A stretch of 64,000 nucleotides of DNA from Candidatus Latescibacterota bacterium (GTDB lineage: Bacteria > Latescibacterota > UBA2968 > UBA8231). The DNA lies in NCBI GenBank assembly GCA_965223905.1, contig CBDCXV010000010.1:1568001-1632000 (forward strand), in the 5' to 3' direction. The translations under genes were made by a program, and so were the position numbers. Under the pieces are notes generated by a model, which saw nothing but the letters and a program-made list of their open reading frames with translations, was not told the DNA's origin and did not search any database. Of this stretch, positions 1 to 63,717 are shown piece after piece. Numbering within the stretch: the stretch's first letter is position 1; every line of letters starts with the position of its first letter.

Positions 1-776
1 TGGTCGACGCCGGAGGGGAGCGGGTGGCGACCCCGAAAGAGGCAGCCTCCGGCAGCCAGGTCGTCATCACCATCGTCACCGACACACCGGACGTCGAGGC
101 TGTCATCCTCGGCGAGAACGGGGTGATCGAGGGAGTGGAGGAGGGGGCCACCGTGATCGACATGAGCACCGTGTCGCCCCGCGTCACCCGCGAAATCGCC
201 GCGGCCCTGAAGGAGAAGGGGGCCGGCATGCTCGACGCCCCGGTCAGCGGCGGCGACGTCGGGGCGCAGCAGGGAACGCTGTCGATCATGGTCGGCGGCG
301 AGCAACAGGTATTCGACGAGTGCCTCCCGGTGTTCGAGGCGATGGGCAGGAACATCACCCTGATCGGCGGCAACGGCGCCGGACAGGTGACCAAGCTCTG
401 CAACCAGATCGGTGTCGCCGTGGCCAACCTCGCCATGGCCGAGGCGCTGATGCTCGCCGCGGCCTCCGATCTCGACGTCGGGAAAGTGGTCGACGCGATC
501 AGCGGGGGAGCGGCCGGTTCCTGGCAGCTGACCAACCTGGGCCCGCGCGTCCTGCAGGGGGACTTCGACCCGGGCTTCATGGTGCGCCTGCAGCAGAAGG
601 ACCTCAAGCTGGTCCTCGAATCGGCGAACGACGTCAAGCTCGCCCTGCCCGCGGTCAGCATCGCCCACCAGTACTTCAACATCGTCGAGCGCATGGGGTG
701 CGCCGACGAGGGCACCCAGGCCCTGATCAAAGCGTACGAAGCGCAGGCGCGGAAAGAGGCGCGCAGCCAGAGTTGA
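1..776 (+). CDS. NAD(P)-dependent 3-hydroxyisobutyrate/2-hydroxy-3-oxopropionate reductase family (5' end outside window)
   Basis: Motifs IDMSTVSP, LDAPVSGG, GTLSIMVGG, GAGQVTKLCNQ, KDL; frame is open from the window start and the N-terminal Rossmann motif is missing. Confidence 0.9.
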   Translation, partial: VDAGGERVATPKEAASGSQVVITIVTDTPDVEAVILGENGVIEGVEEGATVIDMSTVSPRVTREIAAALKEKGAGMLDAPVSGGDVGAQQGTLSIMVGGEQQVFDECLPVFEAMGRNITLIGGNGAGQVTKLCNQIGVAVANLAMAEALMLAAASDLDVGKVVDAISGGAAGSWQLTNLGPRVLQGDFDPGFMVRLQQKDLKLVLESANDVKLALPAVSIAHQYFNIVERMGCADEGTQALIKAYEAQARKEARSQS

Positions 777-937
777 AACAGGTCAATTGGATGTTCACCT
801 ATGGCCACATAAATGACGGTCGACTTCCGATGCCGGAGGCGACCGGGCAAGCGGAACCGTCGGAGGAAAATGGGTCGCCCCCGTATCGCTTGCCGGCTCG
901 AGCATAGCCCGTCTCGGCAAAAGAAAGAGATCGAGAT

Positions 938-1909
938 ATGAGACCGGCTTTTCGATTTTTCATCACAGTTATTTCGCTTCCCTCAATGGCCAACCTTACG
1001 TACGCGGATTCCAATAGTGACACAGCCGGTGCTCGACAGGTAGGAGCGATTCTGGAAGCCGGGGAGATCGACAGCAGCACGGTGGAAGTAGGCGTCTTTG
1101 GCGTGGTCATCCATGGACGGGGGGAACGGCACCCGGTCTCGGGGGAGTGGGAAAGGCTGGAGACAGCCCGAGGCTACATCCAGGCGGTCAATGCGGAAAC
1201 GTTGACCCTGGCCCGGGGAGGAGATGGTTGGCTGCAGCGGATCGCCTTGGATCGCATTCAAACGCTGGTTCTGGCAGGCTCGGCTTCCCGTGAACCGTCG
1301 GCTCCTGAAAGCAGCCAAAAAGAGAACATTCCAACTCCGACGAATTCCGGCCGTGCCGATGCTATGCCGGATACAATTATTGTGAAAACGGATGCAAAGG
1401 GAGAAACTTCACGGCGAATTAAAGTAAAGCTCTTCACTGGTATAGTCGGAGGCAGCGTTTTTCTATGGGCGGGGGCTTTGGCCGGTTGGGGTATTGATGA
1501 TTACTACGGCAAGTGTCGCGGATTGTTTCCAACCAACGAGCAGCACGTTTCTGAAGATGACCATTGTGTAGATATAGGGGTTCTTGTTGGGGGGAGTACG
1601 GGTTGGGTATTTGGAGCTCCCATTGGTGTAAGTATGGTGGAACCCAATGATCGTTTCATACATACGCTGGGTGGCAGCTTGGGGGGGGTGATTGCATGCG
1701 GTTTGCTGACCTTAGTTAGTGATGGTAAGCTTGCGCCATCCTTGATCGTGGCCCCTATCGTTTTTTCCACGGTAGCATCTGAATGGTCCCGAAACGGCGA
1801 ATTATCTCCCAAATCCCTTGAAGACCCTGATCAAGACTATCGTTTTTCCTTAGGTATAATGCCTATATCAGAGGGAAATTTTGCGATGGTCTTAACGCAC
1901 CGGTTCTAA
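938..1909 (+). CDS. Hypothetical exported/membrane protein
   Basis: 323-aa ORF with signal-like N-terminus and Gly-rich hydrophobic helices; visibly AT-richer than its neighbours. Confidence 0.55.
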   Translation: MRPAFRFFITVISLPSMANLTYADSNSDTAGARQVGAILEAGEIDSSTVEVGVFGVVIHGRGERHPVSGEWERLETARGYIQAVNAETLTLARGGDGWLQRIALDRIQTLVLAGSASREPSAPESSQKENIPTPTNSGRADAMPDTIIVKTDAKGETSRRIKVKLFTGIVGGSVFLWAGALAGWGIDDYYGKCRGLFPTNEQHVSEDDHCVDIGVLVGGSTGWVFGAPIGVSMVEPNDRFIHTLGGSLGGVIACGLLTLVSDGKLAPSLIVAPIVFSTVASEWSRNGELSPKSLEDPDQDYRFSLGIMPISEGNFAMVLTHRF

Positions 1910-2069
1910 AAACTAGCTGAATTTCGCTTCTTATTTTGGATTTTACTGAAGGGCGCAAGATGACCCTGCTGCGGTGAGGAGCCGCTTTGTCATCGGCCGG
2001 CTCGAACCAACGGCTGCGCTGCGTTTCGCAGAGGCCGGCCAATAAAAAAAACTGCGGGGAGAACAGAGG

Positions 2070-2861
2070 ATGGACCTGAAGAAAGTCGGGGTTCTGTTGC
2101 GGGATGGGGAGCAGACCTATCCGCTGTCCGAGCTCGACGACCTCTTCGCGAGGCGCGGCATTTCGCTGGCTCCCCTGAAGTGGGACGAGCCCCCGCCCGG
2201 GGATCTCGACATGGTCATGGCCATGGGCGGGGACGGCACCGTCCTCAAAGCCCTCGACCTGTTCAGCGCCGGTCCGGTGCTGGCGATCAACTTCGGCACC
2301 ACCGGATTCCTGACCGCGGCCGACCGCGACGACCTCGACAAGGTGCTGACCCTGCTACTCGAGGGGAACTACCTGGTCAGCGAGCGCCTCGTCCTCGAGT
2401 GCCGGCATCCGCACGGGGTGACGCGGTCGATCAACGAGGTCATCGTGCGCCTTGCCGGCAGCGGCTTCCTCTACATCGACGTTTCCGTGGACGGCACCAA
2501 GATCCGCACCATCAAGGGGGACGGGGTCGTGGTCGGCACCCCGACCGGAAGCACCGGGTTCCTGCTCTCCGCGGGTGCGCCGATCGTGATGCCCGACGTC
2601 CGCTGCCTGATGCTCGACGGCATCAACGAGCACAACTTCACTTCGCGCTCGCTGATCCTTTCACCCGACTGCCGCATCGAGCTGCACGTCGGCGAGGAGA
2701 CCCGGGAGCACGGCGTCCATATCGCCGCGGACGGCCGCCCTCTCGGCAGCCTGAGCCCCGGGGACGACGTGCAGATCGTCCAGTCCTCGACCACGGCCAA
2801 GCTGATCTACTTCCAGGACAGCTACTTCTTCAACAACCTTTCCTCGAAGCTGGGCTGGTAG
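2070..2861 (+). CDS. nadK: NAD(+)/NADH kinase
   Basis: GGDGT, NE and TPTGST motifs; RBS GAGG upstream. Confidence 0.9.
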   Translation: MDLKKVGVLLRDGEQTYPLSELDDLFARRGISLAPLKWDEPPPGDLDMVMAMGGDGTVLKALDLFSAGPVLAINFGTTGFLTAADRDDLDKVLTLLLEGNYLVSERLVLECRHPHGVTRSINEVIVRLAGSGFLYIDVSVDGTKIRTIKGDGVVVGTPTGSTGFLLSAGAPIVMPDVRCLMLDGINEHNFTSRSLILSPDCRIELHVGEETREHGVHIAADGRPLGSLSPGDDVQIVQSSTTAKLIYFQDSYFFNNLSSKLGW

Positions 2862-3161
2862 CGCCCGGAGGAGCGGCCCCGCTGTGGGGCTCTATCCTGT
2901 CCGGGCATCCGGTTCCAAGGCGGGGCATTGGATTCGGAGAACCGCCTGATTGGCGGGACAGCGCCGCGGCCTGTCCGGGCTTCCCCCGCCAGGTTCGCAC
3001 CGGGCCGGGACCGGAGCACCGGATTCACGGAACTTCCTCGATACACACCGGATCCGCATGAGGGGCAGGACGCACAGGTAAGGATCGGTGCGGAAAGGCA
3101 ACCGCCTGCCGGTCCCCCCCAAGGGACACGACCGCGAATGACGGGAGTCGGGAAAGGCTGA

Positions 3162-4679
3162 CTACAGGATGCCGACGCGGCCGGGTGCCTCGGCGTCGAG
3201 CAGGCGCTCCCGCGGCAGGACGAGATTGAGCTCGCGGACCTGCGCGGGGGAAAGCCCGGCAAGCCTGTCGACCAAACCGAGAAAGCGGCAGATCTCCCCC
3301 TCTTCCGCGAGGCCGGCGGTGAGGGTGCGCAGCTTGCGCACGTACTCCCCGCGCCGGAAGGGGCGGGCGCCGAACGAGTGGGCGTTCGGATTGCCGAGGC
3401 GTTCAACGACCCGCGAGCCGTCGTTCATCGCCACCACCACCTCGGCCCCGAACTTCTTGCGCGACGGGTCGGGGTCGTGGTAGGCAGCCGTCCACTCCGG
3501 CACCTCCTCGGTGCGTATCCGGTGCCACAGGCGCACCGTCGAAGGGCGGTGGGCGCGTTCGGAGGTGTAGCTGTCGGCGTGGTGCCAGGCGCCGTCCTCC
3601 CAGGCCACCGCCAGTATGTACATGGCGCTGTGGTCGAGGGTCTCGCGCGAGGCGCCGGGGTCCATCTTCTGCGGGTCGTTGGCGCCGGTGCCGATGACGT
3701 TGTGGGTGTGATGGGAGGTGCGGATCACCACCTCCGCAATTTCTGCGGGATCGAGACTCCGGGCGTGCAGGGAAAAGCCGATGTCGATCAGCGCCTGAGC
3801 CTGGTACTCGGCCGAGTGCTCCTTCGTGTATGACTGGAGGATGGCCGTCAACGGCTCTCCCGGCGAGGGCAGCGGTACGGTGTACTCGGCGTCCGGTCCG
3901 CCCAGCAGCCAGGCGATGACGGCGTCGCGGCCCTCGTAGATCGGCGAGGGAGCTTTCTCCCCGAGGCGGGCGCGCCCCACCGCCTCGACGGCGATCTTGC
4001 CGGCCTGGGCCGGGGCGTAGGCCTTCCAGCTGGTGATCTCCCCCTTGCGCGACTGCCGCGTGGCGCAGCCGAGGTGGACGCTCTGGTTGACGGCCTGGAA
4101 GATCTGCTCCGCCGGCATCCCCAGCATGGTGCCGATGCCCGCGGCGACCGCGGGGGCGAGATGGGCGACGTGATCGATCTTGTGCTCGTGCAGGCAGATC
4201 CCGGTCACCAGCGCCATCTGCGTCTCGTACGCCGTGGCGGTCCCCAGGGCAAGCTCCCGCCCGTTGCGCCCGGTCTGCTGCGCGACCGCGAGAAGACCGG
4301 GAATGGTGTCGCCGGGATGGGAGTAGTCGGCGGCGAGGTAGCAGTCGTGCATGTCGAGCTCGCGCACGGCGACCCCGTTGGCCAGGGCCGCCCACTCGCA
4401 GTGGAAGGTGCGCTCGCCGGGGATCCCGAACAGCGACGCCCCGGTCCCCTCCGGGTGGGGGTAGCCGAGGGCCAGCAGGCGGGCGTTGCGCACCGGGTCG
4501 CGGTTGATGGCGGCGACGGCTACCGCGGCGTTGTCGATGAGGCGGTTGCCGATCATCTCGGCGACCTCGGCTTCGAGGAAGGAGTTGCCGGCCGCCATGG
4601 CGGCGATCTTCCAGGCCAGCTGCTCCTCCCTGGGCAGCACGGTCCCTTCGGCGTGGGTCCTTACGACGACCGGCGGCAT
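3162..4679 (-). CDS. prpD: MmgE/PrpD family 2-methylcitrate dehydratase
   Basis: NGVAVRELDMHD, SHPGD, RQSRKGEITSWKA, KEHSAEYQAQA, SRETLDHS motifs. Confidence 0.9.
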   Translation of the reverse strand: MPPVVVRTHAEGTVLPREEQLAWKIAAMAAGNSFLEAEVAEMIGNRLIDNAAVAVAAINRDPVRNARLLALGYPHPEGTGASLFGIPGERTFHCEWAALANGVAVRELDMHDCYLAADYSHPGDTIPGLLAVAQQTGRNGRELALGTATAYETQMALVTGICLHEHKIDHVAHLAPAVAAGIGTMLGMPAEQIFQAVNQSVHLGCATRQSRKGEITSWKAYAPAQAGKIAVEAVGRARLGEKAPSPIYEGRDAVIAWLLGGPDAEYTVPLPSPGEPLTAILQSYTKEHSAEYQAQALIDIGFSLHARSLDPAEIAEVVIRTSHHTHNVIGTGANDPQKMDPGASRETLDHSAMYILAVAWEDGAWHHADSYTSERAHRPSTVRLWHRIRTEEVPEWTAAYHDPDPSRKKFGAEVVVAMNDGSRVVERLGNPNAHSFGARPFRRGEYVRKLRTLTAGLAEEGEICRFLGLVDRLAGLSPAQVRELNLVLPRERLLDAEAPGRVGIL

Positions 4680-33618: not shown

Positions 33619-34243
33619 TCAAAACGCCGTGGTCGGATGGGACCCCCATCTCCTGCTCTCTCCGATGAAACTGCTGGAGAAGCTGGCGGCTCTGGTTCTC
33701 CCGCCCCGGTTTCATCTCCTGCGCAACCACGGGGTCCTGGCGCCCCGGGCCCAGATCCGCGACCTCATCGTGCCGGCCCAACCGGTTGCCGAGCCGGCGG
33801 CGGCGGACGGCTCGGCGAGCGCTGCGTCCTGCGGCCATCGGCGGCGGTGGGCGACCCTGCTGGCGCGGGTGTTTTCCTCCGACCTCAGCGAATGCGCTGC
33901 CTGTGGCGGTCGCCTGAGAATCATCGCCGCCCTGACCGATCCGGCTTCGATCCGGACCTGTCTGGAGGGGGTAGGGCTGCCGGCGATGCCCCCGCCTGAG
34001 CCGCTGTTCGAGTTCGCCGCCTGACCTGCCTTCTCGACCCGTGGCCGTCGCCGGGTACGGCTGGGTGTGCCCTCAACGGTCCCTCAGGCCCCGGATTGAT
34101 CCGGATACGGGCCGACAGGCAACCAAACTACTGCGAGCTCGGTCGAAGGACTGGCAACGATCCTCAGGGGAGTTGCCAGACCCTTGCGGTACGCTCAGCG
34201 CCTTGACCGAGAGTCCAAAAAAGGTGCCTCATTTTACCTATAC
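33617..34243 (+). mobile_element. ISCR/IS91-like remnant 1 (transposase 3' part plus oriIS end)
   Basis: LLEKLAALV.PPRFHLLR.HGVLAP; ends ATTTTACCTATAC (34231-34243). Confidence 0.85.
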
Positions 34244-47720: not shown

Positions 47721-48387
47721 CGATGCCGACCCTCTTTCCTTCGCGCTCAAAACGCCGTGGTCGGATGGGACCCGCCATCTCCTGCTGTCGCCGATGGAAC
47801 TGCTGGAGAAGCTGGCGGCTCTGGTTCCCCCGCCCCGGTTTCATCTCCTGCGCTACCACGGGGTCCTGGCCCCCCGGGCCCGGGCCCGCGACCGCATCGT
47901 GCCGGCCCAACCGGGTGCCGAGCCGGCCGCGGAGGACGCCTCGCCCAGCGCTGCGGCCTGCGGCCATCGACTGCGCTGGGCGACCCTGCTGGCGCGGGTG
48001 TTTTCCTCCGACCTCAGCCAATGCGCGGCCTGTGGCCGGCGCCTGCGGATCGTCGCCGCCCTGACCGATCCGACCTCGATCCGGATCTATCTGGAGGGGG
48101 TAGGGCTGCCGGCGATGCCCCCGCCGAGAGCCCCGCCGCAGCCGCTGTTCGAGTTCGCCGCCTGACCTCCTCCGCGATTCGCTCCCGGCGCCGGGCGTAC
48201 GGCGGGGGGTGCCCTCAACGGTCCCTCAGGCCCCGGATTGATCCGGATACGGGCCTACAGGCAACCAAACTGTACTGCGAGCTCGGTCGAAGGACGGGCA
48301 AACGATCCTCCGGGAGCTGCCGGACCCTGGCGGTGCGCTGTCCGCCTTGACCGAGAGTCCAAAAAAGGTGCCTGATTTTACCTATGC
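47721..48387 (+). mobile_element. ISCR/IS91-like remnant 3 with oriIS
   Basis: MELLEKLAALVPPPRFH...FEFAA*; ends ATTTTACCTATGC. Confidence 0.9.
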
Positions 48388-53884: not shown

Positions 53885-54181
53885 CCTATCTGGAGGGGGT
53901 AGGGCTGCCGGCGAAGCCCCCGCCGAGAGCCCCGCCTCAGCCGCAGCTCGAGTTCGCCGCCTGACCTCCTCCGCGATTCGCTCCCGGTGCCGGGCGTACG
54001 GAGGGGTGTCCCCTCAACGGTCCTCAGGCCCCGGATTGATCCGGATACGGGCCGACAGACAACTAAACCGTACTGGGAACTCGGTCGAAGGACGGGCAAA
54101 CGATCCTCCGGGAGCTGCCGGACCCTGGCGGTGCGCTGTCCGCCTTGACCGAGAGTCCAAAAAAAGTGCCTCATTTTACCT
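53885..54181 (+). mobile_element. ISCR/IS91-like remnant 4 (3' end; oriIS interrupted at the CT core)
   Basis: Homologous to the 3' non-coding end of the other copies; ends ATTTTACCT. Confidence 0.85.
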
Positions 54182-54315
54182 CGTATAATAGGTCCAGAGG
54201 TTTCGAGACAAGTGTAAATCCAGCCGTGACGGTCTCCCGTATGAGGGTACCTGAGCACCTAAGATGCGCTTGCCTTGTTGGGGACCGGAAGCGACCCTGT
54301 CACCAGCGAGGCTGC
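54182..54315 (+). mobile_element. Truncated left end of the IS110 element
   Basis: Ungapped match to 60654-60787 with 6 mismatches. Confidence 0.9.
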
Positions 54316-54439: not shown

Positions 54440-54478
54440 CAAAGCCTCAATTCAAAGCCTCAATTCAAAGCCTCAATT
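54440..54478. repeat. Tandem repeat 3 x CAAAGCCTCAATT
   Basis: Three exact 13-bp copies. Confidence 0.9.
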
Positions 54479-56488: not shown

Positions 56489-57280
56489 CGGTGACCTTCG
56501 TCCAGCGGTTCGGTTCCTCCCTGAACCTCAATCCCCACATCCACGTACTCATGCTCGGTGGGGTCTACGTCGATGGGGAGGACGCTCCGGTTTTCGTTCC
56601 CGCCCCGCCGTTGTCGGACCAAGCCGTGCAGCAGATCGTGGAGACGAGTGCGCGCCGCATCATCCGCTTGTGCACGAAACGCGGCCTGCTCGACGACACC
56701 GCCGCCGATCCGCTCACCGACGAGGAGCCGGTGCTGGCGGCTCTGGTTCCCCCGCCCCGGTTTCATCTCCTGCGCTACCACGGGGTCCTGGCGCCCCGGG
56801 CCCGGGCCCGCGACCTCATCGTGCCGGCCCAGCCGGTTGCCGAGCCGTCGGCGGCAGACGCCTCGACGAGCGCTGCGGCCTGCGGCCATCGACTGCGGTG
56901 GGCGACCCTGCTGGCGCGGGTGTTTTCCTCCGACCTCAGCGAATGCGCGGCATGCGACGGGTGGCCTGAGAATCATCGCCGCTCTGACCGATCCGGCCTC
57001 GATCCGGACCTATCTGGAGGGAGTAGGGCGGCCGGCGATGCCCCCGCCGAGAGCCCCGCCTGAGCCGCTGTTCGAGTTCGCCGCCTGACCTGCCTTCTCG
57101 ACCCGTCGCCGGCGCCGGGCGTACGGCTGGGTGTGCCCTCAACGGGCTCACAGGCAACCAAACTACTGCGAGCTCGGTCGAAGGACTGGCAAAACGATCC
57201 TCAGGGGAGTTGCCGGACCCTTGCGGTGCGCTGTCCGCCTTGACCGAGAGTCCAAAAAAGGTGCCTAATTTTCCCTATAC
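56489..57280 (+). mobile_element. ISCR/IS91-like remnant 5 with internal deletion and oriIS
   Basis: LNLNPHIH present; the RYxxR region is deleted between GCTGGCGGCTCT repeats; ends ATTTTCCCTATAC. Confidence 0.9.
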
Positions 57281-58193: not shown

Positions 58194-59996
58194 ATGCACA
58201 CGGATATCCTCACTCCTAAAGACCTGTTTCAGAAAGAGGTACGCTACACCATCCCGCCTTTTCAGCGCCCCTACGTTTGGTCTCAGGACGATCAGTGGGA
58301 GCCGCTGTGGGAAGATGTCCGCAACGTAGCAGAAAACTATCTTGAGGAACTGGAGCGCTCAGGCAACAACGGAGTCGAAGCGGAGCAGAATACAAGCCCG
58401 CACTTCCTGGGGGCCGTCGTTCTCAAGCAAGTTCCCACGGCAGCAAAGGACATCGACCAACGTGAAGTGATTGACGGCCAACAGAGGGTGACGACGCTGC
58501 AATTGCTTCTGGATGCAATTCAACAGATTTGCGAAGAGTCAGACCAACCATACCTCAAGAGAGTCGCAAGGCGTCTGGCCAAGCTTGTTACCAACGACGA
58601 AGAACTCATCGGGGACGATAGGCTTCACATCTTCAAACTGTGGCCTACCAGGGGTGACAGGGAAGCGTTCAGACACGCCATGGACAACGGACTCGCCGTA
58701 AACGACTTTGCGGAGTCGCTGATTGTCCAGGCCCACGAATTCTTCCAGTTGCAAGTCCGCAAATGGCTTGACGATGCAGCGGGGCCAATCGAGCCCAAAA
58801 TCGATGCGCTTGAGGCTGCGGCAACATCGATGCTCCAGATGGTGGTTATTGACCTCAGTCCAAAGGACGATCCGAACCTCATATTCGAGACGCTAAATGC
58901 CCGTGGCACTCCGCTTGAACAGTCCGACCTCATCAAGAACTTTGTCCTTTCTCGGGAGCGCGACCGGCAGGGTGACATCTGGGGGAACCTGGACGACGGC
59001 TGGTGGAGGATGGAGGTCAAACAAGGTCGTCTGTTCAGGCCGCGCTTGGACATGCTCCTCAACTACTGGCTGGCTATGCGCACGGGTTCGGAGGTCTCGC
59101 CATCTAGGGTGTTTGACTTGTTCCGCAACTACCTTGATGACCAAGAAGTCCACGCGATGATGTCAGGCGTCAAGCGAGACCTGGTGAACTATCGTGATTT
59201 CGAATCGACCAGAGGCCGCAGCCCAGAGGAGAAGTCGTTCTACTACCACGTAGATGTCATGCAGGCCCGCGTGATCACCCCCGTACTTCTACTGCTCTTG
59301 TCAGCTGAGGAAGGACCGCGCATCAGAGCGTTCAGTTCTTTGGAGAGTTTCCTGGTACGTAGAATGATTTGCCGTCAGACCACGAAGGACTACAATAGGC
59401 TGGTTCTAGAGCTGGCCAGCCGCTTGAGGGATAGTGGACTGGATAAGGCCGATGCAGTTACCGGCGGATTTCTGAAAGAGCAGACGGCATATGCCAGAGA
59501 ATGGCCCAGCGACGAAGCTGTGGCCGATGCACTGGGGTCTTCTCCGCTCTATCGCCTGCTGACAAGAGGCAGACTACGATTGATCCTCGAAGGTGCTGAG
59601 CGCCGGTTGCGTTCTTCGGGAAAATCTGAACAGCCTGCCGTACCGACGAATCTGACAATAGAGCACCTGATGCCGGTAGGTTGGAGAATAGCGGAGTGGC
59701 CACTCCCAGAGGGCATTGTCACCGATGCAGCCACCTACCAACGCAACACGCTCATCCACTCAATTGGCAACCTCACGCTCGCGACCCAGAAACTCAATTC
59801 ATCCATGTCCAACGACGCTTGGGCGAGCAAACGCGACGAACTCCAAGGGCACAGTGTTTTGTTGCTGAACAACGAGCTGTTATCTCAGCCTTCTTGGAGC
59901 GAGGAAACCATACGGTCCAGAAGCCGACGAATGGCGAAGCTCGTATCAGAAAGATGGCCCGGCCCCGCTTCAGAGAAGTGGAACCAAGCCAAATAG
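58194..59996 (+). CDS. gmrSD: GmrSD-type (DUF262 + DUF1524) type IV restriction endonuclease
   Basis: FQRPYVW, DGQQR, FETLNARG, EHLMP and IGNLTL..N motifs. Confidence 0.9.
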   Translation: MHTDILTPKDLFQKEVRYTIPPFQRPYVWSQDDQWEPLWEDVRNVAENYLEELERSGNNGVEAEQNTSPHFLGAVVLKQVPTAAKDIDQREVIDGQQRVTTLQLLLDAIQQICEESDQPYLKRVARRLAKLVTNDEELIGDDRLHIFKLWPTRGDREAFRHAMDNGLAVNDFAESLIVQAHEFFQLQVRKWLDDAAGPIEPKIDALEAAATSMLQMVVIDLSPKDDPNLIFETLNARGTPLEQSDLIKNFVLSRERDRQGDIWGNLDDGWWRMEVKQGRLFRPRLDMLLNYWLAMRTGSEVSPSRVFDLFRNYLDDQEVHAMMSGVKRDLVNYRDFESTRGRSPEEKSFYYHVDVMQARVITPVLLLLLSAEEGPRIRAFSSLESFLVRRMICRQTTKDYNRLVLELASRLRDSGLDKADAVTGGFLKEQTAYAREWPSDEAVADALGSSPLYRLLTRGRLRLILEGAERRLRSSGKSEQPAVPTNLTIEHLMPVGWRIAEWPLPEGIVTDAATYQRNTLIHSIGNLTLATQKLNSSMSNDAWASKRDELQGHSVLLLNNELLSQPSWSEETIRSRSRRMAKLVSERWPGPASEKWNQAK

Positions 59997-60018
59997 AGAG
60001 TAAGAGCTAAGGAGGATA

Positions 60019-60653
60019 GCTCAAAACGCCGTGGTCGGATGGGACCCGCCCTCTCCTACTCTCTCCGATGGAACTGCTGGAGAAGCTGGCGGCTCTGGTC
60101 CCCCGCCCCGGCTCCATCTCCTGCGCTACCACGGGGTCCTGGCGCCCCGGGCCCGGGGCGCCAAGACCGCATCGTGCCGGCCAAGCCGGTTGCCGAGCCG
60201 GCGGCGGACGGCTCGGCGAGCGCTGCGCCCTGCTCCCATCGGCTGCGCTGGGCGACCCTGCTGGCGCGGGTGTTTTCCTCCGACCTCAGCCAATGCGCGG
60301 CCTGTGGCGGTCGCCTGCGGATCGTCGCCGCCCTGACCGATCCGACCTCGATCCGGATCTATCTGGAGGGGGTAGGGCTGAGGCGATGCCCCCGCCGAGA
60401 GCCCCGCCTCAGCCGCTGTTCGAGTTCGCCGCCTGACCTCCTCCGCGATTCGCTCCCGGCGCCGGGCGTACGGAGGGGTGTGCCCCCATCAGTCCCTCAG
60501 GCCCCGGATTGATCCGGATACGGGCCGACAGGCAACCAAACTGTACTGCGAGCTCGGTCGAAGGACTGGCAACGATCCTCAGGGGAGTTGCCGGACCCTT
60601 GCGGTGCGCTCAGCGCCTTGACCGAGAGTCCAAAAAGGGGCCTCATTTTACCT
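60019..60653 (+). mobile_element. ISCR/IS91-like remnant 6 (oriIS split by IS110; last bases ATAC at 61944-61947)
   Basis: Same 5' breakpoint as remnant 1 (GCTCAAAACGCCG); ends ATTTTACCT. Confidence 0.9.
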
Positions 60654-60667
60654 CGTATAATAGGTCC

Positions 60668-60930
60668 GGAGGTTTCGAGGCAAGTGTAAATCCAGCCGTG
60701 AGGGTCTCCCGTATGAGGGTACCTGAGCACGTAAGATGCGCTTGCCTTGTTGGGGACCTGAAGCGATCCTGTCACCAGCGAGGCTGCTGGGGTTCGGCTG
60801 ATTTTACCTCGGGGCATCGTCCCCTGTGATATAGACCGCCGATGCCAGCATGTTGCACTTACCGCTTGACGGGACCCGGTTCCCTGATCTGGCTGCGAGG
60901 ACGTGCCCGGCTGGCGTCACCCGATCGTGG
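60668..60930 (+). ncRNA. Putative IS110 bridge RNA (boundaries approximate)
   Basis: Two stem/internal-loop/hairpin modules with guides matching the target (ATTTTACCT at 60801-60809; TATAG at 60830-60834) and the donor (TTACCGCTTG at 60859-60868; TGCGAG at 60894-60899). Confidence 0.8.
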
Positions 60931-60965
60931 GCAGCTTCCACCTCCCTCTTGGCAAGGAGCGTCCC

Positions 60966-61889
60966 ATGTACCCCCTCGGCATCGACGTCGCCAAACGCCG
61001 ACACCATGCCACCCTGCTTGATGAGGACGGCACCCCGGTGTTCCGCAACTTCGCCGTGCCCCACAGTCGCCAGGGCTTCGAGCAGTTGCTGGCCAAGGTA
61101 GCCGACACCGCCGCAGCCGATGCCATCCGGGTCGGCATGGAAGCCACCGGTCACTACTGGATGGTGCTGTTCGAAGCGATGACTCAGGCCGGGTACGCCG
61201 TCGACGTCCTCAATCCGCTGGTCATCGCCGCCCGACGCAATATCACCATTCGGGGCACCAAGACCGACATCGACCTCCGCCGGCTGACCCGACTGCTCCG
61301 GGAAAGCAGCCGCGGGTGCTTCGGCCGAGCGCCGGCGCAACGGCTCAAAGCAGCCGCCAAGAACTCGTGGGCCCTGAGGCGTCGAGCTGAGGCCCTGGCG
61401 ATGGAGATCCGCTTCGTCGTGGAACGGCTCAATGTGCTCATCGATCAGATCCGCCAGCTGGAGAAGCGGTTCCAGACCCTCATGGTCGACCAGCAGAAGC
61501 TGTTGCAAACCATTCCCGGCCTGGGAAAGGTGTGGGCACCCACCGTCCTCGCCGAAATCCTGCCCGTCTTTCAGCCCGACAGCAAGCACGGCGCCCGTAA
61601 GTTGGTTGCCACCGCAGGCGTCGATGTGCGCCTCACCGAAAGCGGCGACAAGAAGGGATCCGGAAAAAGGTCAAAGCGGGGCAGTCGATACCTGCGCACC
61701 GCGGTCATGCAGGCGGCTGAAATCGCCGTCTTTCGCAGCCACGATCCACTCTTCAGCGAGGTCTACAAACGACAGAAAGATCGCGGCAAGCACCACATGG
61801 TAGCGCTGACACATGTCGCCAACAAGATGTTGCACGTGATCTTCTCCGTCTTGAAGAACGACAGGCCCTACACCCCAATACTCACGTAA
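60966..61889 (+). CDS. IS110 recombinase (DEDD RuvC-like plus Tnp20), probably internally deleted
   Basis: GIDVAK, GMEATGHYW, NP, KTD, IPGLG, ESG and SKRGSRYLR motifs; RBS AAGGAG; the usual KTDxxD and the following helical region appear missing. Confidence 0.85.
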   Translation: MYPLGIDVAKRRHHATLLDEDGTPVFRNFAVPHSRQGFEQLLAKVADTAAADAIRVGMEATGHYWMVLFEAMTQAGYAVDVLNPLVIAARRNITIRGTKTDIDLRRLTRLLRESSRGCFGRAPAQRLKAAAKNSWALRRRAEALAMEIRFVVERLNVLIDQIRQLEKRFQTLMVDQQKLLQTIPGLGKVWAPTVLAEILPVFQPDSKHGARKLVATAGVDVRLTESGDKKGSGKRSKRGSRYLRTAVMQAAEIAVFRSHDPLFSEVYKRQKDRGKHHMVALTHVANKMLHVIFSVLKNDRPYTPILT

Positions 61890-62040
61890 CGTGAACCATA
61901 GATAAAATGCCCACGATCGGTGCTGACTGTTTACCGCTTGTCTATACATTACGCAAGCTAGAAGGCGATCAGGATGTTGCCGCTCGTGCAGAACCGACCC
62001 GTTCCCACTCAACCCTGGCCTTGCCCGATCATTGGAGGCG

Positions 62041-63717
62041 TCAGTGACGCGAGCCGATAGTTTTCTGCATCCGGAATCCGTGCGCCGAGAACTGCTGAAC
62101 TAACAGCCCTTTCCTGCCACCACGGACGTTGACGGCCTGCTCGACTACAGCGGCTTTGGTGTTCGCCCCGTGCCAAATCTCTTCGATGGCGTTCGACGGC
62201 AAGTCGATCACCCCTATGGGCCAGTCATTCCTGTCCAGGGATCCTACGTCGCGCGTTTTGTCAGCATCAACCAGCAGCCGCACCTCCGACTCGTACTCCC
62301 ATGACATACCTTTGACCAACAGTAGGCGCGATAGGGACTTCCAGTCCGTCCCGAATGTTGCAAGATCGACGGTTGATTGAATCGAAGTGCCAGCCCGTTC
62401 TTCGCCCGCCCTCAAACGACGGTCCATCTCCTCGCGGTTGGCTAGGTCCAAGCGAATCGTATCGTCCTTCAAGGGTTGGTAGTTCGGTGCCATCTCAGAG
62501 TACATCACCGGCCTCAATTCGTAGCCTAGCGATCTCAGCGCGTCTGTGCTGTACCCGGCGACTATGCCGGTGTTGCGCGCATAGTGCGCCCACATTGTCG
62601 GAACTAGTGGGTCCGTGCTTAACGACACGACTCCAACCAAGTCGTTCAGGAATGCCTGAATGAAAGGCGACAGCCTCGGACTGCCGTGTCGTCGGGCTTC
62701 CACCAAGAGGTCGTACCAAGGCAGTTCAACGTCCAGGTGCGACTTCAGTTTTTTCTGCAATAGCCGAAGGAAGTTTAGCGTGTCATGGTCGCCTCTTCCG
62801 ATCGTCTCGACATTGCATTCCATGATGTCGTTCAACGCGAGCATTTGGGTGGCGCGTAGGCTTTTGGGCGCTCCCTTGTACACGAGTTCCGCAGGGATGT
62901 ACTTGTAGACAATGCCGGGTATTTCGACGTCTCCCCATAGCCACTCCTGTAGGCAATCTTGTGACTGGTATAGCTGAAGCCAATGCGTAGCCAGCTGGCT
63001 GGCTCTAGCTCCCACGCCGCTTGCCTGAGACATAGCCGACACCACGCTTGAAAGGGTCATCTGGATGACCTTCTCGCTGTACGCGTGGTGGCGTTTGTGT
63101 ATGGAGCAGTAGATGCCCTGATCGGCCAACGGGCGGACCGCGGATCGAGCGGGCCTCAACGGCTCGGCAGGCACGTGCAGCAAATCCAGGCCGGGGTTCG
63201 GCGATATGAGGACTGCACCCTCTGGAGGTGGTGGCATGCGAGTCGCTTTGTCCTTTTGCTGTCTATCTGTGTCGCGAATGGCGGTCTCCAACCACTCGAC
63301 GTCGTATTGATAGTGGGCGTTCTTCGATTTGCTGGCACGCCTGTCAGACTCCTTGTGCAGGCCGAAGTCGGCGCAGTACATGAGGTCCAACCTGCCACGA
63401 GAGCCATGGCAGTCGCAGCCATCCGAAAGTGTTTCGCACCACGGATACGGCTCCCCATCGACACGGTAGTCGTCGTGGTCCCAGCCAGCAGGAAGCTGGT
63501 CTACTATGGAGGACCAGTTGGCTAGATTGTCTGCCAGAACAGATGGCTTGAACGGTGTCCCGGGCTTGTGTTCGTCTAGACGCATGCCAATTTGGAGAGT
63601 TAGTCGTGTATGGAAGATCTCGACCAATCGGTCCGGTGACTGAAACGACGCCTGTATCTTCATCCATACACGAGAGTTGCGGATAACCGCTTCGTAGAGG
63701 TGACTGCGCTCTGTCAT
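62041..63717 (-). CDS. DUF2971-domain protein (C-terminal part); the N-terminal part may be a fused fragment, with an alternative start at 63060
   Basis: SLS....PTMWAHYA..G and K..SWEYESEVR motifs. Confidence 0.65.
   Translation of the reverse strand: MTERSHLYEAVIRNSRVWMKIQASFQSPDRLVEIFHTRLTLQIGMRLDEHKPGTPFKPSVLADNLANWSSIVDQLPAGWDHDDYRVDGEPYPWCETLSDGCDCHGSRGRLDLMYCADFGLHKESDRRASKSKNAHYQYDVEWLETAIRDTDRQQKDKATRMPPPPEGAVLISPNPGLDLLHVPAEPLRPARSAVRPLADQGIYCSIHKRHHAYSEKVIQMTLSSVVSAMSQASGVGARASQLATHWLQLYQSQDCLQEWLWGDVEIPGIVYKYIPAELVYKGAPKSLRATQMLALNDIMECNVETIGRGDHDTLNFLRLLQKKLKSHLDVELPWYDLLVEARRHGSPRLSPFIQAFLNDLVGVVSLSTDPLVPTMWAHYARNTGIVAGYSTDALRSLGYELRPVMYSEMAPNYQPLKDDTIRLDLANREEMDRRLRAGEERAGTSIQSTVDLATFGTDWKSLSRLLLVKGMSWEYESEVRLLVDADKTRDVGSLDRNDWPIGVIDLPSNAIEEIWHGANTKAAVVEQAVNVRGGRKGLLVQQFSAHGFRMQKTIGSRH

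Follow-up and report, generated by a model that had tools for sequence, protein, structure and literature searches.

The closest described system is IS621 of Escherichia coli, a member of the IS110 group of insertion sequences that has a CT core and lacks terminal inverted repeats (PMC11208160, PMC11208158). Handshake guides have been described for IS621 (PMC11208158), and a promoter at the circle junction of IS110 elements has been published (PMC11208160). Other insertion sequences show the range of targets that is in use: ISKpn4 and ISPst6 insert into attC sites, ISPa11, ISPpu9 and ISPpu10 insert into REP sequences (PMC11187229, PMC12288879, 10.64898/2026.03.19.712850), and a title in the reference list of PMC11187229 names an IS1111-group DEDD-transposase insertion sequence that targets the inverted repeats of Tn21. 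The element described here lies in a 64,000-nt stretch of a Candidatus Latescibacterota genome (contig CBDCXV010000010.1, positions 1,568,001 to 1,632,000; hereafter the window, to whose positions all coordinates refer unless a contig or locus is named). The genome containing the window, G000, is a 7.9-Mb assembly that is 93.6% complete. The element, at 60654-61943, is very probably an IS110-group insertion sequence that was inserted by bridge-RNA-guided recombination at the oriIS-side terminus of an ISCR/IS91-like transposon. In its mechanism it is a typical bridge-RNA element; its target class is new in print as far as found, and its natural retargeting is clear.

An original prediction, made from the sequence alone, had presented this target class as one that is not known to have been described. 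The literature searched gave no description of IS91/ISCR origin ends as IS110 targets, a result that leaves aside the supplementary target tables of PMC11208160 and PMC11187229, which could list them; IS91 and ISCR have 0 mentions in PMC11187229.

Insertion site and guide modules

The features of the locus, all on the forward (+) strand, are as follows.

34231-34243 (+): empty cognate site, ATTTTACCTATAC, the terminus of another ISCR-like copy
48375-48387 (+): empty variant site, ATTTTACCT-ATGC
54173-54315 (+): second occupied site, in which ATTTTACCT (54173-81) precedes the 134-bp stub of an IS110 left end (54182-54315)
57268-57280 (+): empty variant site, ATTTTCCCT-ATAC
59940-60436 (+): ISCR/IS91-like (HUH, Y2) transposase remnant, 5'-truncated and frameshifted; start approximate
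60437-60653 (+): non-coding 3' (oriIS-side) region with subterminal palindromes, ending in the left target and core
60645-60653 (+): left target ATTTTAC and core CT (ATTTTACCT)
60654-61943 (+): IS110-family element, a deletion derivative of 1,290 bp, including the right-hand copy of the CT core (61942-61943)
60656-60661 (+): TATAAT, -10 half of the junction promoter
60676-60749 (+): long 5' stem-loop of the non-coding RNA (centroid fold), whose CTTGCC arm is conserved in relatives
60785-60850 (+): target-binding module, with guides, hairpin and handshake bases
60855-60906 (+): donor-binding module
60910-60937 (+): conserved segments C (60910-17) and D (60920-37), which can pair with 60842-49 and 60781-91
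60966-61889 (+): IS110 recombinase open reading frame, 307 aa, with an in-frame 88-aa deletion (junction 61269/61270)
61923-61928 (+): CTGACT, -35 half of the junction promoter, separated from the -10 by 17 nt in the joined ends
61931-61943 (+): right end, left donor TTACCGCTTGT and core CT
61944-61947 (+): right target ATAC, the final bases of the ISCR-like end, which the insertion has displaced

The left junction (60653/60654) reads ...GCCTCATTTTACCT|CGTATAATAGG... and the right junction (61943/61944) reads ...TTTACCGCTTGTCT|ATACATTACG. A CT core is present at both junctions (60652-53 and 61942-43), and CTATAC at 61942-61947 spans the right core together with the right target. Removal of 60654-61943 with one CT kept gives ATTTTACCTATAC, the same sequence as the empty site at 34231-34243. 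Restoration of this empty end upon excision had been predicted, and the predicted coordinates of the site, loops and hairpins are all exact.

The target is present in many copies. The 13-mer ATTTTAC-CT-ATAC occurs as nine intact empty copies in the assembly, against 0.02 expected from base composition, and in a genome-wide count 9/9 sit behind the ISCR-like subterminal motif. The 9-mer left half is found five times in the window (0.07 expected; 0/100 shuffles reach 5), in four ISCR-like ends and one guide, while the 13 further places in the genome that carry this 9-mer with neither an ATAC nor an ATGC right half are all unoccupied. At the second occupied site, the IS110 stub is 95.5% identical to the element and is cut off by unrelated DNA; its target is identical to that at 60645. 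Just past the stub (54440-54470) lies a short tandem repeat of 'CAAAGCCTCAATT' in about three copies. A third, decayed IS110 fragment (C10:237076-237396) adjoins a similar ...TTATTTTCCCT end.

Two modules in the left end, upstream of the recombinase gene, hold sequences that correspond to the target and to the ends of the element itself. In the target-binding module, the left guide ATTTTACCT (60801-60809) matches the left flank and core at 9/9 positions, a GGGG/CCCC hairpin joins 60811-14 with 60821-24, and the right guide TATAG (60830-60834) gives 5/6 contiguous matches, or seven with A 60829 bulged and G 60828 joining. The same bulge pattern is seen at the right target guide of the relative L007. 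The donor-binding module is closed by a GCAC/GTGC stem (60855-58 with 60903-06). Its left guide TTACCGCTTG (60859-68) is identical to the right end at 61931-40 (10/10), its hairpin GGGA/TCCC joins 60871-74 with 60881-84, and its right guide TGCGAG (60894-99) pairs with CT and CGTA (CTCGTA) with one G-T pair, exactly as had been proposed for a second module directed at the element's own ends. Both donor guides are nearly invariant among relatives. Furthermore, AC at 60835-36, after the right target guide, is complementary to the GT before the donor core, and the C at target position 7, nearly universal in the flanks of relatives, is a possible partner for G 60900, which follows the right donor guide. 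These bases correspond to the handshake guides of IS621.

Together, these features suggest a mechanism modeled on that of IS621. First, the element would excise as a circle, with its joined ends forming a sigma-70 promoter for transcription of the left-end non-coding RNA. One loop of this RNA would pair with the element's own joined ends, while the other would pair with both strands of a 13-14-nt target around the CT core. Finally, the recombinase would exchange strands after the CT. Here, the target loop spells ATTTTAC-CT-ATA(C), a sequence conserved at the oriIS-side terminus of an ISCR/IS91-like rolling-circle transposon. The insertion point lies directly after the subterminal palindromes and 3-4 nt short of the presumed nick site.

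Covariation of guides and flanks among relatives

Relatives of the element were drawn from species genomes (11 loci), from related genomes (12 of 41 with a match) and from metagenome contigs (57 loci), and a motif parser yielded 53 distinct left-end modules. For the guide-flank counts, L019 was dropped because its left flank is another copy's right end, and L093 because its left end was mis-parsed; the left flanks of L035 and L041 were re-read, the right flank of L041 was added, and identical guide-flank pairs were merged, leaving 39 loci on each side.

The scaffold of the left-end RNA is conserved and two stretches are variable. Across these related loci, the left guide and the left flank agree at 6.82/9 positions, compared with 4.88 ± 0.16 when pairs are permuted, and the right guide and the reverse complement of the right flank agree at 5.13/6, compared with 3.70 ± 0.14; on both sides, 0/10,000 permutations reach the observed value. 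Matches are perfect for 6/39 left guides (9/9) and 13/39 right guides (6/6), with striking single pairs in L071 (10/10 left), L091 (9/9 and 6/6) and L082 (7/7 right). The core CT starts 39/39 right flanks and ends 38/39 left flanks, the exception being the decayed copy L046 (TT). A tabulation of insertion sites against guides across IS110 homologs, which the original prediction had put forward as one of its checks, reveals covariation on both sides.

The fold of the RNA was also probed by comparison. Among 45 sequences, compensatory changes are found in the target hairpin (3/4 pairs), the donor basal stem (2/4) and the donor hairpin (2/4), and 92.9% of cells in the inner helices pair, compared with 41-51% when the partners are slid. 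With the guide-flank covariation, these pairs bear out the proposed target-loop and donor-loop layout of the IS621 type. The outer stem TGCTGG/CCAGCA (60785-90 with 60845-50) shows compensatory changes at 3/6 pairs, compared with 5/7 for a rival pairing of 60842-49 with 60910-17, which is accompanied by 60781-91 with 60920-37, and RNAalifold (13 sequences) preferred this rival arrangement to the outer stem. The inner hairpin of the target module stands as predicted, while the outer stem that was predicted to enclose it faces a competitor with more compensatory pairs. The two pairings are mutually exclusive, and the guides are unpaired in both. The alternative uses conserved segments in the 5' untranslated region of the recombinase gene, and the two pairings may constitute a conformational switch that ties RNA folding to processing or translation.

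Guides have also been reset between relatives. In the sister genome G010, an IS110 copy whose protein is 80% identical carries the guides ATTTGCCCT and GATAG and lies between the flanks ATTTGCCCT|ATCC, so that its guides match the local ISCR-like end variant exactly on the left and at 5/6 on the right. Four more empty CATTTATTTGCCCT|ATCC sites occur in G010, two of them with IS91-like coding sequence upstream. These data bear directly on the proposal that guide-target identity is a by-product, arising either because flanking DNA was picked up or because one ancestral insertion was duplicated along with the ISCR-like repeat. There are only two occupied sites, no more than 6.5 kb apart in a single array, and the fold energy of the RNA is unremarkable, all of which a by-product would accommodate. 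The covariation on both sides at 39 loci from many sources largely refutes it, however, as does G010, with its different guide and matching different target. Moreover, the ISCR-like sequences before the two occupied sites are different variants (83% vs 95% ungapped identity to the same reference copy), making a single duplicated insertion very hard to credit.

Insertion guided by a bridge RNA, by comparison, fits the distribution of relatives. IS91-like C-terminal coding sequence is found upstream of IS110 left ends at L014/L038 (G002), L015/L022 (G013), L031/L040 and, weakly (E 0.005), L035/L042 (G016). Right flanks that start with CTATAC or CTATCC belong to 9/39 loci and two right-end-only copies, which are the closer relatives; more distant relatives target CCT|TTxx sequences. 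IS110 copies at ISCR-like ends recur in at least four genomes (G000, G002, G010 and G016), and the lineage appears to be specialized on these ends, where relatives in the same bacterial family also sit. Strong IS110 matches were found in 7/41 genomes (G000, G002, G010, G012, G013, G016 and G023), and six of the seven have Y2_Tnp, compared with 19/41 overall (the exception is G013, which is 84% complete); as the threshold for a strong match was set by eye and the genomes are kin rather than independent, this co-occurrence is suggestive only.

Several individual loci depart from this pattern or extend it. The upstream open reading frame of L007 is IS1595-like rather than IS91-like, which at first sight makes this locus a counter-example; an IS1595-like element may, however, lie inside an ISCR-like end there. 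L010 is the closest relative (96%); its right flank is cognate, its left flank is not, and it carries internal deletions. It was treated as a rearranged copy. L031 and L035 (G016:C2, about 2.72 and 2.70 Mb) carry the same target loop at two different sites, one of which fits the left guide bar a 1-nt indel and the right guide at 5/6, the other fitting the right guide at 6/6 and the left at 5/9; these loci recall the 'half-match' insertions named in the title of the preprint 10.64898/2026.08.31.748434. In contigs of other studies (runs X3 and X6), T60804A and A60806T together give a ATTATTCCT guide, as in L019, and A60831C alters the right guide. Natural guide variants of a near-identical element thus coexist in public samples.

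The targeted repeat and the presumed effect of insertion

The window contains five same-orientation copies of a 300-600-bp repeat, and longer copies elsewhere in the genome encode a protein with Y2_Tnp and Zn_Tnp_IS91 domains. In one such copy, L001, these domains score 74.8 bits (PF04986) and 29.2 bits (PF14319). The best NCBIfam model for the repeat protein is ISCR clade Ia (326.7 bits, cut-off 925), followed by IS91 (94.5 bits, cut-off 125), placing the repeat as an ISCR/IS91-like relative outside the curated ISCR clade Ia and IS91 subfamilies. The genome holds 25 Y2_Tnp matches, mostly C-terminal fragments, and the majority of ISCR-like copies are 5'-truncated or frameshifted; one frame (C11:524158-525663) appears complete as far as the C-terminus. 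The remnant that precedes the element is matched by the L001 transposase in tblastn (about 59936-60380), and its reading frame ends with the C-terminal motif CAACGG..RIVAAL..GVGL and ..FEFAA before the stop at 60436.

The terminus of the repeat lies constantly ~220 nt past the transposase stop codon. A 160-nt probe of this end gives 27 BLAST hits genome-wide, 22 of which extend to the terminus, and the empty ends on C10 and C1 read ...CCTATA|CTTN in 15/16 cases, with CTCC in one. Folded as single-stranded DNA, the final 118 nt of an empty copy has z = -3.72, which 0/200 shuffles equal. In ISCR1 and IS91, oriIS is placed downstream of the transposase gene, and subterminal palindromes are described for IS91 and IS801 (PMC13181058, PMC6218425, PMC5737581); the oriIS ends of the IS91 family adjoin a conserved tetranucleotide of the CTTG/GTTC type, with T at position 2 (PMC13181058). 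Since the CTTN neighbor, the position after the gene and the folding palindromes fit these descriptions, the terminus is assigned to the oriIS side, in agreement with the original identification of an ISCR-like target. The 5'-truncated copies that retain the terminus would be the expected remains of prematurely ended replication that started there.

Could the repeated 3' module instead be another conserved terminal element, such as a site of recombination or the boundary of an unrelated mobile unit? IS110 targeting would stand in that case, and the NCBIfam scores below cut-off, together with an IS1595-like inverted repeat that abuts the same stretch in several places as if it were a hotspot for more than one element, are in keeping with such a module. 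Its constant position behind a Y2_Tnp/Zn_Tnp_IS91 gene, its folding subterminal palindromes, the CTTN that follows nearly all empty ends as the IS91-family rule has it (PMC13181058), and the retention of this end by 5'-truncated copies, which is expected if replication begins there, argue against this possibility, which is regarded as improbable.

The IS1595-like inverted repeat, CCGGTTAAATGGATACCCCCAA, abuts the terminal GG(T)GCCTT.. of ISCR-like ends in either orientation, with its junction 15-20 nt upstream of the IS110 site (L007:2130-2206; L046:1365-1405; G000 C11:525873-525894, C11:798356 and C11:799429). Either a third insertion sequence family favors the same terminus, or its inverted repeat shares a motif with it. 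The ISCR/IS91-like 3' fragments also form same-orientation arrays with a spacing of 3-9 kb and unrelated cargo between them, both in the window (33600-64000) and elsewhere in G000 (C10:353-383 kb, 546-561 kb and 1464-1479 kb; C1:929-938 kb). Among the cargo are an aldo/keto reductase, an enolase-superfamily protein, a SIR2-domain protein, DUF6785/DUF6784, PhyH and HTH proteins, as well as GmrSD (58194-59996) and DUF2971 (62041-63717, - strand). These arrays look like the product of serial ISCR-style capture or of one-ended transposition with 5' truncation. Over 60300-60634, the summed contig depth is 450-3,500 in runs X1, X3 and X6, compared with roughly 4-60 over the IS110 element; contig depth is not copy number, and the ISCR-like repeat is very abundant in the sampled communities.

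Insertion of the IS110 element places 1.3-1.55 kb between the palindromes and the presumed nick site, and would thereby uncouple the two. In IS91, an end of ~82 bp together with the tetranucleotide is needed (PMC13181058). Because the palindromes are parted from the nick site, the origin of an occupied ISCR-like copy should, by analogy with IS91, be disabled.

Whether such an effect is under selection, or the ends serve as the multicopy safe harbor that the original prediction put forward beside disablement, is a separate matter. The targeting may be real and yet incidental, with an abundant, conserved and harmless repeat serving as a harbor, as REP does for IS621, and with neither origin specialization nor a selected effect. 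The ISCR-like ends are indeed highly repeated, as the end probe and the contig depths both indicate; little is left to disable, because most ISCR-like copies are already 5'-truncated or frameshifted; more distant relatives target the unrelated CCT|TTxx; and REP, attC and Tn21 inverted repeats serve known members of the family as harbors (PMC11187229). The association in at least four genomes, with guides that track the local end variant, goes beyond one lucky repeat. This recurrence is still compatible with the serial choice of harbors, however, and the main difference between the readings concerns the object of selection. An incidental harbor is considered slightly less likely than not.

A stronger proposal is that of a dedicated hyperparasite lineage, in which the target loop of a bridge-RNA IS110 element tracks diverging oriIS termini across genomes, severs their hairpins from the nick site and brakes ISCR-type gene capture. 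As an IS1595-like element is also drawn to this 25-nt terminus, the ori end would be contested by three transposon families. This proposal is considered unlikely.

State of the copy and comparison with described systems

The recombinase of the window copy belongs to the IS110 family, as was originally proposed, with Pfam matches to DEDD_Tnp_IS110 (PF01548, 93.1 bits) and Transposase_20 (PF02371, 61.5 bits). A full-length homolog from public data, P0001, is 97% identical to it, scores 224.7 bits against the NCBIfam model NF033542 'IS110 family RNA-guided transposase' (cut-off 140) and aligns with the solved IS621 transposase chain 8wt6_A in two stretches that cover both domains (phmmer E 5.6e-18). 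Homologs are 395-401 aa long, while the window protein is without alignment columns 104-191; the deleted stretch, which the homologs retain, begins where the KTD of the DEDD motif ends. The family identity that had been predicted is confirmed, and the deletion has to be added to the predicted picture. From its sequence, this copy is best described as a fossil, a non-autonomous deletion derivative that cannot act alone; it is a defective member of the IS110 group rather than a non-member. Contigs from two other studies cease to match at exactly 61269/61270 and continue beyond, suggesting that the undeleted form exists elsewhere.

The promoter of the element is split between its two ends, with the -35 half in the right end and the -10 half in the left end, thus matching the published IS110 junction promoter. 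When ends are abutted in silico, 27/29 junctions give a sigma-70 promoter of at least 10/12, mostly with a 17-nt spacer; the row for L035 (9/12) depends on a mis-parsed left end. With the element integrated, promoter prediction yields none on the + strand ahead of the RNA. The joints listed for contigs of runs X1, X3, X6 and X21 include neither an excision joint that skips 60654-61943 nor a circle joint from right end to left end, although contigs cannot show the absence of either. One RNA-library contig covers 60920-61157, which lies outside the guides; it may derive from DNA and is no proof of transcription. At L019:1488-1520 (G012:C2, about 3780200), a right end is fused to a left end via one CT in the chromosome. 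This junction is of the tandem or circle type and has a split promoter with TTAACT as its -35; the left-end copy that follows is truncated after ~411 bp.

A number of observations weigh against insertion by bridge-RNA-guided recombination at an ISCR/IS91-like origin. The deletion takes out the fourth acidic residue and the linker, leaving the catalytic set (D, E, D, D and the Tnp-domain serine) incomplete, and tblastn with the full-length P0001 found no other copy of the recombinase, and thus no intact helper, in the 93.6%-complete assembly. Occupancy is 2/11 exact cognate sites, one of which holds the 134-bp stub. The right target guide of the window copy exceeds 5/6 only with a bulge, the left match is only 5/9 at 6/39 loci (L008, L021, L035, L050, L061 and the rearranged L010), the right flank match is at most 4/6 in 8/39 relatives, and the permutation tests overstate independence because the loci are related. 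The outer stem of the target module has a better-supported rival. In the 5' non-coding region, shuffled sequences fold as well as 60654-60966 does when it is folded singly (z = +0.43), and a scan of 60300-62300 with Rfam 15 (E up to 10), which may or may not include a bridge-RNA family, gave only three weak, unrelated hits (E 4.8-9.6). Since the fold is unremarkable and the Rfam scan gave nothing relevant, the support for the RNA comes from comparison with relatives and not from thermodynamics. Finally, the ISCR-like protein is under both NCBIfam cut-offs, and the exact boundary, nick site and ori function of the ISCR-like repeat are assigned by analogy.

The locus is of interest because known bridge-RNA recombinases are mostly REP-targeting and enterobacterial, and natural target range indicates purpose. 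Here, the guides of an environmental lineage are aimed at the functional end of a different family of transposons and are reset as that end changes, which amounts to natural retargeting and provides a concrete case of one mobile element possibly controlling another. ISCR/IS91 elements are major vehicles of gene capture, and a natural insertion that an RNA guides to their origin also offers a ready-made experiment on the last 15 nt of oriIS. Moreover, roughly 45 guide-target pairs extend the rule set to a distant clade, adding a 6-nt right guide, bulged variants and a handshake G-C at target position 7.

Comparison with described elements places the targeted repeat close to ISCR1, IS91 and IS1294. 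All have a Y2 HUH transposase with a zinc-binding N-terminus and lack inverted repeats; they share an oriIS region that lies ~170-230 bp 3' of the gene and contains subterminal palindromes, a tetranucleotide of the C-T-T-N kind at the ori end, and arrays with captured genes. The repeat differs in its scores below the NCBIfam cut-offs, in its environmental phylum and in its mostly 5'-truncated copies.

For the IS110 element, ISKpn4, ISPst6, ISPa11, ISPpu9 and ISPpu10 are comparable in their site-specific insertion into short, repeated, structured sequences and differ in their target classes and in being mostly of the IS1111 type. Judging from its title, the Tn21-targeting insertion sequence resembles the window element more closely in its choice of site, as the fixed target of both is the functional end of another transposon. 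Being of the IS1111 group, it encodes its guide RNA after the gene and has inverted repeats in subterminal positions, and it hits the inverted repeat of a DDE (Tn3-family) transposon, whereas the window element occupies the origin-side end of a rolling-circle (HUH) element.

The architecture is that of IS621. Both elements possess a recombinase with DEDD/RuvC-like and Tnp domains, a CT core and, in the left end ahead of the gene, the sequence for an RNA. This RNA has a target loop and a donor loop, each with a left and a right guide whose pairing takes in the core, and handshake bases follow the right guides on their 3' side. In both elements, a promoter is rebuilt at the circle junction. In contrast to IS621, the protein of the window lineage is distant and longer (395-401 aa in full-length relatives, compared with 328 residues in the solved IS621 chain), the 5' stem-loop is longer, and a conserved downstream pairing (60910-37) rivals the outer stem of the target module. 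The window copy additionally carries a deletion, and the natural target is an ISCR/IS91-like end where that of IS621 is REP.

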